This document shows positions 1 to 6,144 of a stretch of 6,144 bases of DNA, piece after piece. The notes below the pieces were generated by a model. The model had not been told where the DNA came from. It did no database searches and worked only from the letters and a program-made list of their open reading frames with translations. Numbering within the stretch: the stretch's first letter is position 1; every line of letters starts with the position of its first letter. Source of the DNA: a virus; the IMG/VR virus record IMGVR_UViG_3300020029_000019, positions 1-6,144 of that record; one strand, written 5' to 3'. Made by a program: the position numbers and the translations under genes.

Positions 1-121
1 ACCAATAAATGAACCATAACCAAGCATATCCAACAGCTTGCAAGAGCCATAAGCAAATCCAAAGCCAGCGTCATCCACAGTGCCAGAATCCACTCTATTA
101 CGAATTTCACCAGAAATATTG
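1..121. repeat. Terminal direct repeat, copy 1 (circular wrap-around)
   Basis: Compared base by base, it is identical to 6024..6144 (ACCAATAAATGAACCATAACCAAGC...CACCAGAAATATTG). Confidence 0.97.
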
Positions 122-480
122 ACAAGAGGGGCATACGGGACACTAGTCAATTGTTCTGTATTAGAAACATTGCTAGCCGCGCTAGTCATATAATCCGTCA
201 TTTGAGTAAAAGCTTGCGGAAGCGCACGAGAAATCAAACGTAACGGCACGGCATAGAAGTCATAATACTCCTTAATACGGGTATAAGCAGCAGTATTGAC
301 TGGAACGGTACGAGTAAACCAGTCAGACGAAATACGATATTTCGTACCGGGAATAGCAATTTGCCAATAGCAAGGAAGAATCTCACCAACTTTAGCGGTA
401 AACAGCTTTTTCGAACTTAAGTCAAAAGATGAGCGATGGGTAGGAATTTTCGCTCGGTCCAAAGGATTAAAATCACTCAT
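1..480 (-). CDS. Major capsid protein VP1 (phiX174 F-like), N-terminal part. True start ATG at 480..478; continues across the circular junction into 6023..4776 (1..121 duplicates 6024..6144)
   Basis: Hand translation of the minus strand from 480 gives MSDFNPLDRAKIPTHRSSFDLSSKKLFTAKVGEILPCYWQIAIPGTKYRISSDWFTRTVPVNTAAYTRIKEYYDFYAVPLRLISRALPQAFTQMTDYMTSAASNVSNTEQLTSVPYAPLVNISGEIRNRVDSGTVDDAGF with no stop down to base 1. It is in frame with the 4776..6116 track ORF (387 nt = 129 codons upstream of it). The FDLS..(K)L....G.L.P and YDF..VP.R patterns are typical of Microviridae capsid N-termini. It is absent from the ORF track only because it runs off the window edge. Confidence 0.9.
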   Translation of the reverse strand, partial: MSDFNPLDRAKIPTHRSSFDLSSKKLFTAKVGEILPCYWQIAIPGTKYRISSDWFTRTVPVNTAAYTRIKEYYDFYAVPLRLISRALPQAFTQMTDYMTSAASNVSNTEQLTSVPYAPLVNISGEIRNRVDSGTVDDAGFGFAYGSCKLLDMLGYGSFIG

Positions 481-499
481 AATTAATTAATATTTAAAA

Positions 500-2176
500 T
501 TAAACCATACGGTTGAAAATATTATTAGCATCATTAAGCTTCTTGTGTTTAATCATATTACAACAGAATGTCGAACTACGGTACCGGAGCTGCTCAAGAA
601 TCTGAACCGTTTCACGTGAAATATTCGACAAGACATCAATCTCCTGCCCGTACGCAGGCAACGCAAACATACAATCCGAAATCTCAGGGTATTGGGCACG
701 GATGTTATATGCATCTCGTAAACTTTCATAATTCGCTTTCTTTTCATATTCTATGCCTGTTTTAATGATAAAATTAATACGACCGGAGTAAGCACTAACA
801 TCAGAACCGAAGTCAGGCAAATGCCAGTTACGGAAGAATTTAGAGACATATAGGAACAACCTATACAACTTATTAACAAAAGATTCAGCATCGAAATCAA
901 CAGAACAGTAACCAAACCTAGTAGAACACCGAGAAGCATGTAATACAATCTTGTCATCATCAGTAAGAATAGGATTAACCTTAAGATATTTATAATAAGC
1001 ATTGACAAGGCCTAGAATCGAGTCTCTGTAGTGAATAATCCCGAATCTTGCAACTCTTTGCGGCGTGCGATGCACAGCGAGAAGAATTCGAGCAATCGCA
1101 GCACTATCGTCATTGCGAGCAGACGAGAATCGGGGCAGTAAGGTACGGATATACGACATGGGTGGAGTTGACCGAACACTGACGCCGTTGAAGTTATAGA
1201 TTCGTCCGTTAACGACAGAATCGATTTTTTTCTCAATTTGAGAATAAGGGTCGTCGTCTTCCATGAAATCGCAACCTTTCTCAAAAAATCCGACAGACGC
1301 TCGCGATTTGAGTCTAAACGCGCGGCATGAGCGATATAAAAGGGGAGCAGCACTAAGGCTGTTAACGTAACTCGCAACGTACGAACCAGCTCCACCAGCG
1401 GCACGTTGGAAATCTGAACGACCGAGCTTCCAACTCTTATCGTGACAGTGTCGTAGAACCTCGGAGACTTCGTCCGAGTTTGTGAATAATAAGAGATGAT
1501 AATGCGGGCGGAAATGAACGGGTCCGTACTCACCCACAGCGTAGAAATGTAACGTTTCATAAGAACCTAGTGTTTGGAATAAATGTTTACGTAAACGTTT
1601 AATATAATTCTGAACATCAACATAATTCAGGAAGGGAATAAGGTTATCACGACCGTATTGCGAAGAAACGGGATAGTCCGTTTTGCCAACGGCTTGCGTC
1701 TTATAGATAAAACTACGAATAGCATCCATACTAAGGAACCAATTATCCCTAACAGGGACATATTCCTTAATTTCACGGTCATACGGCACAGTGCCTTGAA
1801 CCTGCTCGAAGAATATATGATGCAACATGGAGTTATCATCACATTTATATTCAGAAACAGAGATATACTGATGATGTTCATCGCCAAAATGAGAATCTCC
1901 TGAAATGCCTAAAACATCCTCATATTCACTATGAAGAACCTTACAATTCATAAGAGGAATGTGTACATTGTCATAAGTAAGAGTTACAAAATAAGAATAC
2001 TTAAAAGCACTTCCAGCGGTCTTCACACGCATGGACGCTTTTTTAGCACGCTTATGGATACAATAATCACATTGACCACAATCCACGGCAATGCGTGCAC
2101 CGGTGTATTTGTTCGTAATAAACGAACGATATTGACAATGGTCAACAGCCTTAAACAAATCAGGAGAAAATTTCAT
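500..2176 (-). CDS. Replication initiation protein VP4 (HUH rolling-circle endonuclease, phiX174 gpA-like)
   Basis: 558 aa, ATG at 2176..2174, TAA at 502..500. Motif I is FVTLTY (aa 63-68). The HUH motif is GEYGPVHFRPHYHLLLF (H225/H227, nt 1504..1496). The two-tyrosine motif is GSYVASYVNS (Y266 nt 1381..1379, Y270 nt 1369..1367), with the Y-x3-Y spacing of the phiX174 gpA catalytic tyrosines. There is an N-terminal Cys cluster, CGQCDYC (aa 33-39). Confidence 0.93.
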   Translation of the reverse strand: MKFSPDLFKAVDHCQYRSFITNKYTGARIAVDCGQCDYCIHKRAKKASMRVKTAGSAFKYSYFVTLTYDNVHIPLMNCKVLHSEYEDVLGISGDSHFGDEHHQYISVSEYKCDDNSMLHHIFFEQVQGTVPYDREIKEYVPVRDNWFLSMDAIRSFIYKTQAVGKTDYPVSSQYGRDNLIPFLNYVDVQNYIKRLRKHLFQTLGSYETLHFYAVGEYGPVHFRPHYHLLLFTNSDEVSEVLRHCHDKSWKLGRSDFQRAAGGAGSYVASYVNSLSAAPLLYRSCRAFRLKSRASVGFFEKGCDFMEDDDPYSQIEKKIDSVVNGRIYNFNGVSVRSTPPMSYIRTLLPRFSSARNDDSAAIARILLAVHRTPQRVARFGIIHYRDSILGLVNAYYKYLKVNPILTDDDKIVLHASRCSTRFGYCSVDFDAESFVNKLYRLFLYVSKFFRNWHLPDFGSDVSAYSGRINFIIKTGIEYEKKANYESLRDAYNIRAQYPEISDCMFALPAYGQEIDVLSNISRETVQILEQLRYRSSTFCCNMIKHKKLNDANNIFNRMV

Positions 2177-2181
2177 AATTA

Positions 2182-2487
2182 CTAACGTTTATCAATCACC
2201 TGACGACGATTACGGTCACCAAACGAAATATGAATAAATGTAGGGTACAATATTAACTGGTCAAACACATGAACATTATCCGAAAAACTATGAATATGTT
2301 CAAGTAACCGGTTATAAGTAGTAGAACCATAAGGTTTCATATCAATAGCCTCACCAAATAGATGCTGGGAATTGAAAACACCACCAGCGGCCTTATTCTC
2401 AGCGATAGAACGCTTGGCACTTGTTATAGTAAAATGCAAGTTAAAGCATAACAAATGCTCAAGAAAATCCATAAGAGTAGAATTCAT
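2182..2487 (-). CDS. Peptidase M15 family (zinc D-Ala-D-Ala carboxypeptidase / LAS-fold cell-wall hydrolase), endolysin-like
   Basis: 101 aa, ATG 2487..2485, TAG 2184..2182. ITSAKRSIAENKAAGGVFNSQHLFGEAIDM matches the M15 signature (itSgyRs...N...GG...S.H..G.A.D). The H-x6-D zinc pair is H42 (nt 2364..2362) and D49 (2343..2341). The C-terminal LILYPTFIHISF supplies the third ligand, H86 (2232..2230). Caveats: the domain is minimal, and Ser rather than Asp follows the last His. Confidence 0.75.
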   Translation of the reverse strand: MNSTLMDFLEHLLCFNLHFTITSAKRSIAENKAAGGVFNSQHLFGEAIDMKPYGSTTYNRLLEHIHSFSDNVHVFDQLILYPTFIHISFGDRNRRQVIDKR

Positions 2488-2567
2488 AAACCAATAGCAT
2501 TAAGGATATAACCAAGAGCGGCAGAAACAGCACCAATCACAATCTTCCAAATATTATTCCTTTTCAT
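2484..2567 (-). CDS. 27-aa single-pass membrane peptide (MKRNNIWKIVIGAVSAALGYILNAIGL), possible holin-like or membrane partner of the peptidase
   Basis: ATG at 2567..2565. The TGA stop (2486..2484) overlaps the peptidase ATG (2487..2485) as ATGA. 18 of 27 codons end in T, matching the genome-wide T-ending codon preference, so this is the coding frame here. A basic N-terminus (KR) is followed by a ~22-residue hydrophobic helix. It is the 3' portion of the 74-aa track ORF 2484..2708. Confidence 0.5.
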   Translation of the reverse strand: MKRNNIWKIVIGAVSAALGYILNAIGL

Positions 2568-2751
2568 TGCTTTGAGTTTTAAGTTCAACGAAATCATTTT
2601 CTTCTTTAATCGAATCCACAATAACAATAAGACCCAACGAAGAAATTCGCTCAGAATAATTTCCAAGACCATCGAGAGAATTAACGATATAAGGCGAAAT
2701 AACATCACGACCTGTGTTTTTGTCCTTAACTGAGATAATAAATTTCTGCAT
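2554..2751 (-). CDS. Hypothetical protein, 65 aa (no recognisable family)
   Basis: ATG 2751..2749 is the first start codon after the non-coding region and promoter candidate. It has strong T-ending codon usage (ATT TCG CCT TAT ATC GTT AAT TCT CTC GAT GGT CTT ...) and a balanced, soluble-looking composition. It overlaps the 27-aa ORF by 14 nt. Confidence 0.6.
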   Translation of the reverse strand: MQKFIISVKDKNTGRDVISPYIVNSLDGLGNYSERISSLGLIVIVDSIKEENDFVELKTQSNEKE

Positions 2752-2832: not shown

Positions 2833-2878
2833 ATTTTTTTAGAAATTGTGGGGAGAGGACCATTTGTGATGGAGTGTG

Positions 2879-2946
2879 AGTTGTGCGTTTATGGACAAGA
2901 GTAGGAGAATCCGAGAGGATAACTCGGATTTGCTTCGCACACAACT
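2879..2946. other. Nested inverted repeat
   Basis: The outer stem is AGTTGTGCG (2879..2887) paired with CGCACACAACT (2936..2946): 9 bp with a 2-nt bulge. The inner stem is a perfect 8 bp, AATCCGAG (2908..2915) with CTCGGATT (2923..2930), and a 7-nt loop AGGATAA. Confidence 0.6.
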
Positions 2947-2996
2947 AGGGGCTTCGCTTAATTAACAAGTGGATGTATACAGAGGTGTATAGGCAC

Positions 2997-3036
2997 GGCA
3001 AGGCAGAGGCTGTCTTGCCTTTGCGCGCCGTCGCGC
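2997..3036. other. Two adjacent GC-rich hairpins
   Basis: GGCAAGGCA (2997..3005) pairs with TGTCTTGCC (3011..3019): 9 bp including one G-T at 3003/3013, with loop GAGGC. Next, GCGCG (3023..3027) pairs with CGCGC (3032..3036), with tetraloop CCGT. Confidence 0.6.
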
Positions 3037-3045
3037 TAAAATACC

Positions 3046-3082
3046 GGAGCGGGGCGCTCCTATAAGGAAGTCGCTCCGCTCC
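3046..3082. other. 11-bp hairpin with a competing local fold
   Basis: GGAGCGGGGCG (3046..3056) pairs with CGCTCCGCTCC (3072..3082): 11 bp with one G-T at 3053/3075 and a 15-nt loop. Alternatively, GGAGCG (3046..3051) pairs with CGCTCC (3055..3060) around a 3-nt loop. Confidence 0.6.
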
Positions 3083-3094
3083 ATTTTCGAACAG

Positions 3095-3141
3095 GCCCTA
3101 CGCGGGCGGCGGGTGTATATCGCTCAAACGCCGCGATGGGC
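3095..3141. other. Long-range GC stem
   Basis: GCCC (3095..3098) pairs with GGGC (3138..3141), and CGCGG (3101..3105) pairs with CCGCG (3131..3135). A 2x2 internal loop separates the two stems, which enclose 25 nt including GGGTGTATA. Confidence 0.5.
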
Positions 3142-3219
3142 TTCTAGTCCTGAAGTACGCTATTGTCTACCTAACTTAGGAATAATCTAAAATACACAAG
3201 AAAATAGATTTGCCAACGA

Positions 3220-4323
3220 CTAATAACCGATACCATTAGAACTATTATAAATAGTAGTGTTACGAGGACCGTAATCATTACGAAAAATCTGAGGACCGGG
3301 TCGCATAGCTCCAATTACATTACCGGCACCTTGAAAAATACGAGACGTATAATCTATCGCATTACGCAAACCATATGAATCAAAATCTTTCTTAGTATTA
3401 CCAGCAGACCACTTATAATAATCACGAATAGCCTTATCCTTAGAATACTGGATATTTTTACGATGATTCACATTTTTATAATCCCATAAAGAATCATAAT
3501 ACTGTGTATAATAAGCCATATTCGTAGCACTTACAAGAGCATTAGCAGTACCAGAAGCTATTTCATTAGAAATACGCTGGCCTCGAGCCTGAGCGGCGAC
3601 CAGAATAGCACGCTGAAGTTCAGTCTGGACTTGTTTTTCAGTCAGAGCACCCTGCTGGACAAGATTATAAAGATACTGGCTCTTAGTGAGCAAATCGGCC
3701 TGTTGATTTGCGTCCATATATTTATTAAGCACAGCTTGAGCATCAGATTGTAAGTAAACGTGTGTTGTCTGAGCCGCAGACAATTTACCAGCAGCAACCG
3801 CATTTTCAAGTTCCTGACGTTCTGTAGACTGGTCCAACTCCGCAGAAATGCGACCTGTTTCAGAATTCCAATAACCAGATTCACCGACGCCAATATTCTT
3901 ATAATTGGTATCTCCCATAATTTTCCTTGCCAAAAGAGGAGTAAGAGTCTCAATTTGACTAGATTCAGAAATAGACTTACGAGCCTGGGCAAATGTTGCT
4001 AACGCGGAATCAATGCCAGACAAATCCACATGAACACCTTGCATAGCCGGAGTAGTAGGGATAGTAGCCTGAGGAGAAGGGCCGGGAGAAGCAGAAGTAC
4101 CAGCACCAGTCTGGTGAAGGAATGGATTCAAACCTCGGACAATCTGAGCAGCAGGAGAATTATATTGGTTTTGATAATCAACCATATATTTCTGCCATTG
4201 TCGAGACAGCTGAGCCTCATTTTGGGCAGCCACACGATTCTGTGTAGCGATTAATTCATTAGTCGCATTCGCATTAGACTGCGACATAGCATTAATCATA
4301 CTGCCAAACAACGAACCTATCAT
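3220..4323 (-). CDS. Minor capsid / DNA pilot protein VP2
   Basis: 367 aa, ATG 4323..4321, TAG 3222..3220. A Gly/Ser-rich N-terminus is followed by QNQYNSPAAQIVRGLNPFL, the N.P..Q....GLNP.L signature of gokusho/alpa-type VP2. The centre is Gln/Ala-rich and looks coiled-coil. It sits downstream of VP1 and the scaffold-position gene. Confidence 0.8.
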   Translation of the reverse strand: MIGSLFGSMINAMSQSNANATNELIATQNRVAAQNEAQLSRQWQKYMVDYQNQYNSPAAQIVRGLNPFLHQTGAGTSASPGPSPQATIPTTPAMQGVHVDLSGIDSALATFAQARKSISESSQIETLTPLLARKIMGDTNYKNIGVGESGYWNSETGRISAELDQSTERQELENAVAAGKLSAAQTTHVYLQSDAQAVLNKYMDANQQADLLTKSQYLYNLVQQGALTEKQVQTELQRAILVAAQARGQRISNEIASGTANALVSATNMAYYTQYYDSLWDYKNVNHRKNIQYSKDKAIRDYYKWSAGNTKKDFDSYGLRNAIDYTSRIFQGAGNVIGAMRPGPQIFRNDYGPRNTTIYNSSNGIGY

Positions 4324-4763
4324 TGAACACTAGAGGCAGGGGCGGAATCCGAAGACGGCACTGCCTTATCCGCTGCCAACAAAGACTCAGCATAAGCTGA
4401 AAGTTCAGACTTCTCACTAGCTAATTGCCGCAATACAGCCTGTCGCTCTGACATAGTCTGACAATGTCGAGAAATAATACAATTAAACCGCTCATCATCC
4501 GACATATTATCCATGGAGGTAGACTGAGTAGGATGCATTTGCGCAAGAATATTCTGGACATTCATATCGCCAAGGAGACGACGATATTTTTCTTGGTTGA
4601 GGAGAATGGAAGTCATATCCATATACATATACGAACCGTCAGACAATTTTTCCAACATAACCGAATCATATACACTAGGTTCATAACAAGGATTCCCTTC
4701 AATCAATTCAGGGGTAACAGTATCCTGTTCAAAATCAGGATTAATATAAGCAAAACTTCTCAT
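4320..4763 (-). CDS. Hypothetical acidic protein, possibly an internal scaffolding protein (VP3 position)
   Basis: I place the start at ATG 4763..4761 (MRSFAYINPDF..., 147 aa). The track start at 4775 is a TTG abutting the VP1 stop. The TGA (4322..4320) overlaps the VP2 ATG as ATGA. The protein is rich in Asp, Glu and Ser. The scaffold assignment rests only on position and composition. Confidence 0.6.
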   Translation of the reverse strand: MRSFAYINPDFEQDTVTPELIEGNPCYEPSVYDSVMLEKLSDGSYMYMDMTSILLNQEKYRRLLGDMNVQNILAQMHPTQSTSMDNMSDDERFNCIISRHCQTMSERQAVLRQLASEKSELSAYAESLLAADKAVPSSDSAPASSVQ

Positions 4764-4775
4764 AACAACACACAA

Positions 4776-6144
4776 TTAATAAGGTAAACCATTTCTATCC
4801 AAATTCTGCACAGCATACACTTGGAAATTAACATTACACAATAACTGGTCATAAGCCACGCTATAATGTTCAGTAGTAATCTGAGGCTCAAATATAGAAT
4901 TCAATTGCTGAGGACGAATCTTAAACGATTGATAACTCAATGAAGACTGGCCAGAAACTTGAATCTGAGACCCTTGAAGCGGAGCAGCCCAAGACTGATA
5001 AGCAGCATTAGGACGGAATGCACCATGAACAGTATCTACAGCGGATTTCCATTGCCAATAGCGCAAATTGTATCCAATATTGCCCTGAACAGAAGACGGG
5101 CTATTATTAAGAGTCAAAGCCGAAACAGGCTGCATACCTAACTGGTCAAAAGCAGGTTGAGGGAAATCGGAAACAGACGTACATAACAACTGAGGATTGT
5201 GGCCCTTAAGAGACCAGTCAAGCAAAGGAACAGCATGATAAACGCACATAATAACCTGATGTTCAGCACCGCAATCATAATTAATAACATGGCCAGACTT
5301 AGAGCCTACACCTTTACCAGCAATAACAGCCTGAGAGTTGTCGGCAGTCAAATTAGTGTTCAGAACCTCATTAATATTAATAACATTAGACCAACCACCA
5401 ATATAATGGGCATGGTTACCCATGTACTCGGGGGCTTTAATACCAAATTGAGCGGCCATTTGGTCTGAATAATCCTTGCTAGAGAATTGGACTACTTCTT
5501 TCCAGCGCTGGAGAAATTCAATGGCACGGATTGAGAGAGCGGAAAGGTCTGAATTAAGATGAATCTCACGAACAGAAGAAGAGGACTGCTGAACAACAAC
5601 ATTATCAGAACCACCATTATTCAATACAGGAGAAGATGGAACACCTAAAGCTAAAATACGAGTTGAACCCAAAGTAGGATCATACGAAGAAGGTAAAATA
5701 GCTACCGAACCATATTGAGAAGCAGGAAGAACACCAAGAAAATAGTCTTTAGGATAATTAGCATAGCGGAGACGAATCATATCAGAAGATAATTCGATAG
5801 AACTTTTGCCATCCCAATAATCAACATTATAAGAATAAGCTAAATGTTTCTCCCATTGAGAGTTACTGAAAAAATCAAAATAAATCTTCTGATAAGCAAG
5901 AGCAGGAAGAAGATTCAAGTTAACACTGGTACCATAAATAAGGGGGTTCTGTCCATCAGCCAATGAAGTCGTATCAAGACCAAGATACTGCATAGTAATT
6001 TCTGCCTTCTTATCATTAGAAGTACCAATAAATGAACCATAACCAAGCATATCCAACAGCTTGCAAGAGCCATAAGCAAATCCAAAGCCAGCGTCATCCA
6101 CAGTGCCAGAATCCACTCTATTACGAATTTCACCAGAAATATTG
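4776..6144 (-). CDS. Major capsid protein VP1 (F-like), C-terminal part; same gene as 1..480
   Basis: Track ORF 4776..6116 stays open upstream to the window end. Its listed first M is really an internal GTG (Val) codon in ...EIRNRVDSGTVDD.... Joining 480..122 with 6144..4776 gives 1728 nt = 575 aa plus TAA (4778..4776). The size fits the microvirus jelly-roll capsid family. So do the Gly/Ser/Asn/Tyr-rich composition and the position directly downstream of rep. Confidence 0.9.
   Translation of the reverse strand, partial: NISGEIRNRVDSGTVDDAGFGFAYGSCKLLDMLGYGSFIGTSNDKKAEITMQYLGLDTTSLADGQNPLIYGTSVNLNLLPALAYQKIYFDFFSNSQWEKHLAYSYNVDYWDGKSSIELSSDMIRLRYANYPKDYFLGVLPASQYGSVAILPSSYDPTLGSTRILALGVPSSPVLNNGGSDNVVVQQSSSSVREIHLNSDLSALSIRAIEFLQRWKEVVQFSSKDYSDQMAAQFGIKAPEYMGNHAHYIGGWSNVININEVLNTNLTADNSQAVIAGKGVGSKSGHVINYDCGAEHQVIMCVYHAVPLLDWSLKGHNPQLLCTSVSDFPQPAFDQLGMQPVSALTLNNSPSSVQGNIGYNLRYWQWKSAVDTVHGAFRPNAAYQSWAAPLQGSQIQVSGQSSLSYQSFKIRPQQLNSIFEPQITTEHYSVAYDQLLCNVNFQVYAVQNLDRNGLPY
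6024..6144. repeat. Terminal direct repeat, copy 2 (circular wrap-around)
   Basis: Identical to 1..121. The repeat lies inside the VP1 reading frame and restores it when the ends are joined. Confidence 0.97.

Follow-up and report, generated by a model that had tools for sequence, protein, structure and literature searches.

The short region that precedes the peptidase gene of this microvirus raises the question of whether it codes for a membrane peptide and whether such a peptide forms, with the enzyme, a minimal holin-endolysin pair, as an initial annotation of this DNA had proposed. The window, i.e. the whole stretch of 6,144 nucleotides that was analysed, corresponds to a 6144-base virus record with direct terminal repeats and therefore represents a complete circular microvirus. 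It is an Alpavirinae-like gut microvirus, and these microviruses are among the most abundant phages of the human and animal gut. Its closest GenBank relatives are faecal Microviridae of dogs, lemurs and humans, and its Rep is 30% identical to that of the Bacteroides phage phiHBP1, the first Bacteroidota microvirus in culture (PMC13064476).

The minus strand carries every long ORF of the window. The genes of the major capsid protein (4776..6143 continuing 1..480, Phage_F match), of a protein assigned to the scaffold by its position alone (4320..4775) and of the pilot protein (3220..4323, phrog_31272) are followed by a GC-rich non-coding stretch (about 2850..3160) that matches no Rfam family, the Rfam search of the entire window having found no RNA family. 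An accessory block then opens with a 65-aa ORF (2554..2751), and the order of overlapping or abutting genes is 65-aa ORF, peptide, M15 peptidase and Rep (VP4, the replication initiator; 500..2176, PF23343). The 65-aa ORF is conserved among relatives (pN/pS 0.08-0.32); it has no family in Pfam or PHROGs, and its matches in a protein atlas are unnamed microvirus clusters only.

The short ORF upstream of the peptidase

The ORF at 2567..2484 on the minus strand (window:2487-2567:-) consists of an ATG, 26 sense codons and a TGA, that is, 27 codons plus the stop, and would code for a single-pass membrane micropeptide. Residues 1-8 form a basic N-terminus (K2, R3, K8) and acidic residues are absent, while residues 9-27 are predicted to form a 19-residue hydrophobic helix with a Kyte-Doolittle mean of 2.01; the basic N-terminus and single hydrophobic helix described in the initial annotation are thus apparent in both sequence and hydropathy. 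One face of the helix is made of small or polar residues (G12, A16, G19, N23, G26), no charged residue occurs after K8, and the peptide ends within the helix. Its TGA (2486..2484) overlaps the peptidase ATG (2487..2485) in an ATGA at 2484..2487, as previously described, and a recount agrees with the 18 T-ending codons out of 27 reported before, a T3 of 0.67 compared with 0.47-0.59 in the other genes. The peptide ATG falls within the terminal part of the 65-aa ORF, which stops at 2556..2554, and codons 6-26 overlap no other gene. The earlier statement that the region between the 65-aa ORF and the peptidase is not spacer is therefore right in that it holds a real gene, but this gene is not wholly intergenic, as it shares 14 nt with the 65-aa ORF.

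Judging from its variation among more than 100 relatives, there is very little doubt that this ORF is a genuine gene. Relatives were sampled in three independent ways, with the peptidase as seed, with the 65-aa ORF as seed, and by a back-translated motif scan. The ORF is intact in all 27 peptidase-seeded IMG/VR loci, where it ends in ATGA (GTGA in one). The search seeded with the 65-aa ORF, in which the peptide plays no part, returned 80 loci, two of which were left out since the contig ends inside the ORF, and the peptide is intact in all 78 that could be evaluated, one with a GTG start. Neither stops nor frameshifts, which the initial annotation had named as evidence against a gene if they occurred in relatives that keep the peptidase, were found among these 105 evaluable loci (27 and 78, the two sets sharing contigs). 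The scan, run with the ten-residue core IGAV[ST]AALGY, matched 98 microvirus contigs and otherwise only two loci of one unrelated large contig; among its 93 peptidase-bearing contigs, the junction is ATGA in 91 and GTGA in two (L032, L074).

The pattern of substitution is that of a protein under purifying selection. Among the peptidase-seeded loci, variation affects the third position in 21 of the 27 codons and the second position in only three, and pN/pS over codons 6-26 is 0.088, lower than that of the peptidase (0.24), while the same DNA read in the other two frames gives 1.4 and 6.9. The start codon is always kept or replaced nearby (GTG in L203, a new ATG five codons upstream in L127), and several lineages have versions of 26, 28 or 29 residues. 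Compared with Microvirus mar56, the peptide is 81% identical, whereas the peptidase, Rep and the 65-aa ORF are only 47%, 46% and 38% identical, respectively, making the peptide better conserved than any neighbouring protein. The contrary view, in which a hydrophobic open frame simply arises from the T-rich codon bias, could draw on the many hydrophobic alternative-frame ORFs of the window genome, but it is hardly tenable: the variation is codon-periodic and strongly constrained over a segment free of gene overlap, and the frame is intact in all evaluable relatives. We therefore rejected a codon-bias artefact.

The same frame extends upstream to an ATG at 2705, and the functional product might be, or include, a 73-aa two-helix protein (2484..2705) that has a second hydrophobic segment besides the peptide helix and is overprinted on the 65-aa ORF; it would resemble a class II holin, and the 27-aa form would be a second start. 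Such a dual start does not exclude the short form. Of 98 genomes, 80 have an in-frame ATG 46 or 47 codons upstream and seven more have one at -53; the frame stays open over at least 35 codons in 97 of them, and mar56 as well as Dulem viruses 226 and 243 carry an ATG at the homologous position. Moreover, pS in the 64/65-aa ORF falls from 0.45 (codons 1-15) to 0.21 (codons 16-60), exactly where it is overlapped, and GAT is used for the Asp whose codon provides the ATG in 92 of 93 genomes, compared with 74% genome-wide. We nevertheless regard the long form as unlikely. T-rich third positions hold the +1 register open genome-wide, so an open frame is expected from codon bias, and the drop in pS is not decisive because Rep shows comparable dips. 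The extension itself has a pN/pS of 0.70 with no conservation of its charged residues, stops interrupt it in three of the eight genomes that carry the type-2 peptide described below, and one genome of the window type (seen as L020 and L130) has a stop ten codons upstream. Finally, the Met of the short form is strictly conserved or compensated, which argues for independent initiation there.

The peptidase and the separability of the two genes

The gene at 2182..2487 codes for a 101-aa minimal zinc peptidase of the M15_3 (LAS) type that matches Pfam PF08291 (E 7e-9, 36.1 bits for a cut-off of 23.2, profile positions 38-107 of 108) and phrog_894 "endolysin". The zinc-ligand motif SxHxxGxAxD and the distal His are present, and S40, H42, G45, D49 and H86, as well as R26 and D76, are invariant in 18 sequences. 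A fold model with a pLDDT of 90.8 gives TM scores of 0.62-0.69 to 1lbu, 8q2g and 5opz; its Foldseek matches comprise the Streptomyces DD-peptidase 1lbu, the endolysins LysECD7, LysB4, Ply500, T5 and RB49, and the Serratia L-Ala-D-Glu endopeptidase ChiX, and tblastn identified relatives annotated as endolysin in Stenotrophomonas, Xanthomonas and Burkholderia phages. On this model the enzyme is a complete, endolysin-like LAS fold assignable to M15_3, of which it is a shortened form. No signal or SAR sequence is predicted at its N-terminus, in line with the earlier claim that it lacks a signal sequence: over the first 35 residues, which include D, E and H, the hydropathy of 15-residue segments does not exceed 1.05.

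Such peptidases were reported in Alpavirinae and gokushoviruses by Roux et al. 2012, who proposed a role in lysis (PMC3394797), and were treated as probable lysis genes by Kirchberger et al. 2022, who also described module recombination (PMC9239249). The window gene agrees with these accessory genes in being located upstream of VP4, in being a proposed endolysin and in belonging to a recombining module. Neither study names a membrane partner for the enzyme, and what is described there is the peptidase with an adjacent "unknown ORF", unlike the transmembrane micropeptide found here (PMC3394797, PMC9239249).

In about 94% of the clade, including the window, the peptide gene lies directly before the peptidase gene, but the ATGA overlap joining the two is also found between the VP3 and VP2 genes (4323..4320); it is thus the usual packing of this genome and not evidence of a functional pair. 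Moreover, six relatives (L072, L080, L081, L091, L106 and L127, four of which also belong to the sample seeded with the 65-aa ORF) keep the 64-aa ORF and the peptide but have no peptidase anywhere in tblastn at E up to 10. In these genomes a conserved spacer of about 52 nt separates the peptide gene from Rep. Purifying selection persists on their peptides (pN/pS 0.14, or 0.25 outside the residues fixed by the search); five of the six carry a terminal Val in place of Leu, and four share the ending Ser-Ala-Ile-Gly-Val. A degenerate copy of the peptide gene interior, about 38 nt long, is present in the spacer of at least L072 and L127, and the 14-mer GCTCTTGGTTATAT ends the spacer just before the Rep ATG in L072, L080, L091 and L127. 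Because of this copy, the shared 14-mer and the Val endings, the arrangement looks like a single rearranged module. A tree of the Rep N-terminus scatters the six genomes and forces at least three changes, which may reflect module recombination, as fits the description of Kirchberger et al. 2022, or poor resolution.

Conversely, a peptidase without an adjacent transmembrane mini-ORF occurs in mar62, mar63, phiHBP1 and the long-peptidase microviruses L136, L137 and L139, and in Microvirus D_HF4_111 and Dulem virus 264 a related peptide is not adjacent to the peptidase. The peptide thus behaves as an independent module, kept with or without the peptidase in every relative examined, and its persistence where the enzyme is missing shows that it does not merely serve the peptidase.

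A sister clade (Dulem virus 257, bajarodmic virus 410 and six IMG/VR genomes) has a different, 29-residue peptide, here called type 2, in the same layout directly before the peptidase in 8/8 genomes; Ala, Ser, Thr, Gln and Ser align with the helix-face residues G12, A16, G19, N23 and G26 of the window type. The two clades bear on a further possibility, that the peptide serves as a membrane anchor of the peptidase through frameshifting or readthrough, yielding a fusion similar to a SAR endolysin. The helix is rich in Gly, Ala and Ser, as SAR domains are, and in the type-2 genomes peptide and peptidase are in one frame, separated by one stop and one codon. In the window clade, however, the peptidase is read in the -1 frame, and in nearly every genome this frame is closed by a TAA located four codons (12 nt) ahead of the peptidase ATG. 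The last Leu codon of the peptide varies (TTA, CTA, CTG), so there is no conserved slippery site, and the relation between the two frames differs between the clades. A programmed fusion was ruled out on these three grounds, and we give this reading almost no weight.

Among alpaviruses at a greater distance (Rep identity 28-33%), the position ahead of Rep is taken by several kinds of genes for small membrane proteins: an unannotated 26-residue transmembrane ORF in Dulem virus 264; in Dipodfec virus RodF1_24 and Dulem viruses 244 and 263, ORFs of about 63 aa that combine a signal-like helix with a lipobox-like Cys; and an unannotated ORF of this last kind in Dulem virus 252. In addition, Microvirus D_HF4_111 carries an unannotated 29-residue ORF (L326:808-894) directly after VP2 and about 500 nt from the peptidase. 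This ORF is the best match of an HMM of the window-type peptide among 928 ORF segments (E 0.042), and it belongs to Pfam PF20096 (DUF6486; 39.9 bits, curated cut-off 22.7) and NCBIfam NF033879 "smalltalk" (33.7 bits, curated cut-off 24.7); the peptide of Dulem virus 264 (L324:755-832) is exactly at the Pfam DUF6486 threshold. The window peptide has no family of its own in Pfam, PHROGs or NCBIfam. It resembles DUF6486/"smalltalk" (about 30 aa) in size, basic N-terminus, interface Trp and single helix but is beyond the reach of both models, which do not match it at E up to 10 and do not match any of the six translated frames of the genome either. For this reason we report a probable distant relationship, linked through the D_HF4_111 peptide, and not membership.

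Possible roles of the peptide

A holin-like or viroporin-like role in membrane lysis is our best guess for the peptide, although a tentative one that we hold at somewhat less than even. The peptide would be translated from its own conserved start codon, within the chain of overlapping or abutting genes, and would then insert into the host inner membrane, with the basic N-terminus remaining cytoplasmic and the 19-residue helix ending at the periplasmic face. Through its small or polar face it could oligomerise or bind a conserved membrane partner, and late in infection it would compromise the inner membrane. Where the signal-less peptidase is present, this lesion would give the enzyme access to murein; alternatively, the lesion might trigger lysis by itself. 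In its favour are the type-2 peptide of the sister clade, alike in layout and position, and an adjacent endolysin-like peptidase devoid of an export signal. In ssRNA phages, lysis genes that have a transmembrane domain (TMD) and only about 25 codons are documented as functional; 178 of 293 TMD-bearing small ORFs gave no phenotype, however, so that a TMD alone predicts little (PMC7693330).

The comparison with the holin-endolysin cassettes of tailed phages (lambda S/R; the pinholin S21-68 with its SAR endolysin) is similarly mixed. In the window, as in these cassettes, a small membrane gene lies immediately upstream of, and is translationally linked to, the gene of a muralytic enzyme without a signal sequence, and the small residues of the helix face recall glycine-zipper pinholins. 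Of the features of canonical holins, the peptide has the predicted TMD but not the charged hydrophilic C-terminal tail, and it further differs from the cassettes in having only 27 residues and one helix, in being nearly invariant, in being kept without the enzyme and in its ssDNA microvirus context. Unlike in pinholin/SAR systems, the peptidase has no SAR domain, and a pinhole would therefore not suffice; with neither a charged tail on the peptide nor a SAR domain in the enzyme, the likeness to canonical holins and pinholins is only partial. Two further observations argue against this mechanism. A pure holin without a muralytic enzyme should not lyse the cell, as would have to happen in the six peptidase-less relatives, and a near-invariant transmembrane helix is atypical of holins, its constancy fitting a specific protein target better. 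The minimal holin-endolysin pair originally suggested thus survives in part: a real single-pass gene is coupled to an endolysin-like, signal-less M15 peptidase, but the pairing is not obligate, its ATGA is the house style of the genome, and both the tail and the sequence variability expected of a holin are missing.

A specific target would be at the centre of single-gene lysis, in which the peptide inhibits a conserved membrane step of murein synthesis and the peptidase is an optional accelerator; precedents are the action of phiX174 E on MraY and of LysM on MurJ. The peptide is under selection in peptidase-less genomes, and its helix is nearly invariant across lineages whose other proteins are 38-47% identical, which suggests such a target. 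Furthermore, single-gene lysis (Sgl) proteins are general in small single-stranded phages (PMC3394797, PMC7693330), and the window peptide shares with phiX174 E and levivirus Sgl (PMC7693330) a small TMD protein in a tiny single-stranded phage, a gene overlap as seen in some of them, the presence in some relatives without a muralytic enzyme, and a length near the 25-codon range. It differs from them in that it has no sequence similarity to them and is usually accompanied by an endolysin-like peptidase (about 94% of the clade), which would be redundant if synthesis were blocked, and in that it lacks a soluble domain and no target can be named. We consider this reading improbable. At 27 residues the peptide is also shorter than any characterised Sgl protein that we know of.

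The peptide could also have a membrane role other than lysis, for example in superinfection exclusion, in the modulation of a host membrane protein or in whatever DUF6486/"smalltalk" peptides do, its adjacency to the peptidase being accidental. The two genes are separable in both directions, the clear DUF6486 peptide of D_HF4_111 stands after VP2 and well apart from the peptidase, and other alpaviruses have the lipoprotein-like ORFs of about 63 aa at this locus without a peptidase; phage lipoproteins are often exclusion factors. The role of DUF6486/"smalltalk"-like peptides need likewise not be lysis, which may count against the lysis mechanism. However, a lytic phage has to lyse its host by some means, for which the 6-kb genome shows no other candidate, and three divergent lineages (the window clade, mar56 and the type-2 clade) retain the peptide directly before the peptidase. 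We regard a role outside lysis as a minority possibility.

We know of no established mechanism of host lysis for microviruses outside the phiX174 group. The peptidase has been known since 2012 without a route across the membrane, and an always-present micropeptide offers a concrete and cheap hypothesis in this respect. As its retention does not depend on the peptidase, the peptide may in its own right be a minimal antibacterial agent against Bacteroidota, either membrane-active or target-specific. In the most far-reaching version, which is a long shot, the peptide alone would be the lysis effector of a large and abundant clade of gut microviruses with Bacteroidota hosts, the peptidase would be a dispensable recombining add-on, and the peptide would represent a viral branch of DUF6486/"smalltalk". 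If true, this would be the smallest natural phage lysis protein with a conserved, specific membrane target or pore, and the DUF6486/"smalltalk" peptides of Bacteroidales would gain a first function.

Distribution and annotation of the peptide gene

A tblastn search of 50,697 phage records found the peptide in 35 microvirus records only, with no homologue in tailed phages, and a protein homologue search with the 74-aa extended frame gave microvirus contigs only. PHROG "hemolysin" matches of this extended frame (E 0.05-0.08) were dismissed as hydrophobic noise. A bacterial or prophage source was also discarded, as the motif scan of 185,579 species genomes gave no Bacteroidota and matched only an unrelated helix at the C-terminus of Dehalococcoidia proteins about 430 aa long. 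Such peptides are also carried by contigs of 17-367 kb, among them contigs of 24.7 kb, 62 kb and 367 kb.

While the peptidase is already known, our literature search found no paper describing the peptide itself. The gene is not strictly unannotated, but it carries neither a name nor a function: in exact look-ups, the IMG gene calls include the window peptide and the consensus peptide without a name, and the type-2 peptide is present in NCBI nr as a hypothetical protein of Microviridae. The default minimum gene length of Prodigal is 90 nt, so an ORF of 84 nt would be excluded. This locus is thus a case where routine annotation hides or mis-frames a gene. For example, in the GenBank records of Dulem viruses 226, 238 and 243 the peptide is unannotated and the peptidase CDS is extended upstream across it to 124 aa, the extension being poorly conserved in the peptidase frame in contrast to the conserved frame of the peptide.

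Peptidase start and the spacer before Rep

The peptidase gene is annotated as a 124-aa CDS, either 'peptidase' or hypothetical, in the GenBank records of Dulem virus 226 (PP511396, L028:870-1244), Dulem virus 243 (PP511391, L029:832-1206) and Dulem virus 238 (PP511887, L030:831-1205). In all three, the upstream extension of this CDS spans the gene of the membrane micropeptide. The 21 residues that it adds show poor conservation, in contrast to the conserved peptide frame that they overlap, and the internal ATG of the ATGA overlap is probably the true start.

In four of the six relatives lacking the peptidase (L072, L080, L091 and L127), the spacer of about 52 nt that separates the stop codon of the peptide from the start of Rep terminates in GCTCTTGGTTATAT just 5' of the Rep ATG. 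Part of this spacer, in L072 and L127 at least, is a degenerate copy, about 38 nt long, of the interior of the peptide gene. The spacer looks like the scar of a rearrangement that removed, or came before, the peptidase cassette.

Regions of low synonymous divergence and a GC-rich island

Synonymous divergence falls to about half that of flanking coding DNA at positions 2570-2705 of the window, corresponding to codons 16-60 of the 65-aa ORF, and likewise in Rep at alignment columns about 271-330 and 376-405. These stretches could owe their lower divergence to genes overprinted in the +1 register, to DNA or RNA elements, or to a T3 codon bias that is locally extreme. Upstream of the 65-aa ORF, a non-coding island (2850-3160) is GC-rich in an otherwise AT-rich genome; an Rfam search of the whole window, this island included, returned no family at the gathering score.

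The peptide and its core in larger contigs and bacterial proteins

The peptides are also present on contigs of 17, 25, 63 and 367 kb (protein clusters P0122, P0136, P0145 and P0093), which might be integrated copies or chimeric assemblies, and from which the identity of the host could emerge. Dehalococcoidia proteins of about 420-570 aa (L220-L237, from Dehalococcoidia/Chloroflexota MAGs) contain an exact match to the peptide's ten-residue core within their C-terminal transmembrane helix; this most likely reflects convergence on a helix-packing motif and is unrelated to the phage.

Small ORFs in other microviruses

The same pre-Rep locus is occupied by ORFs of about 63 aa in distant alpaviruses: L320:466-657, L322:447-644, L325:656-847 and, unannotated, one in Dulem virus 252 (L323, about 740-927). 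All have a signal-like helix at the N-terminus, a Cys in a lipobox-like setting and a Ser/Thr/Asn-rich tail, and they may be small lipoproteins.

Finally, an unannotated 29-residue ORF lies directly 3' of the pilot gene in Microvirus D_HF4_111 (L326:808-894, corresponding to OR148991.1 3707-3793). Because it clearly belongs to both Pfam DUF6486 (39.9 bits) and NCBIfam 'smalltalk' (33.7 bits), this uncharacterised family is placed in microviruses.
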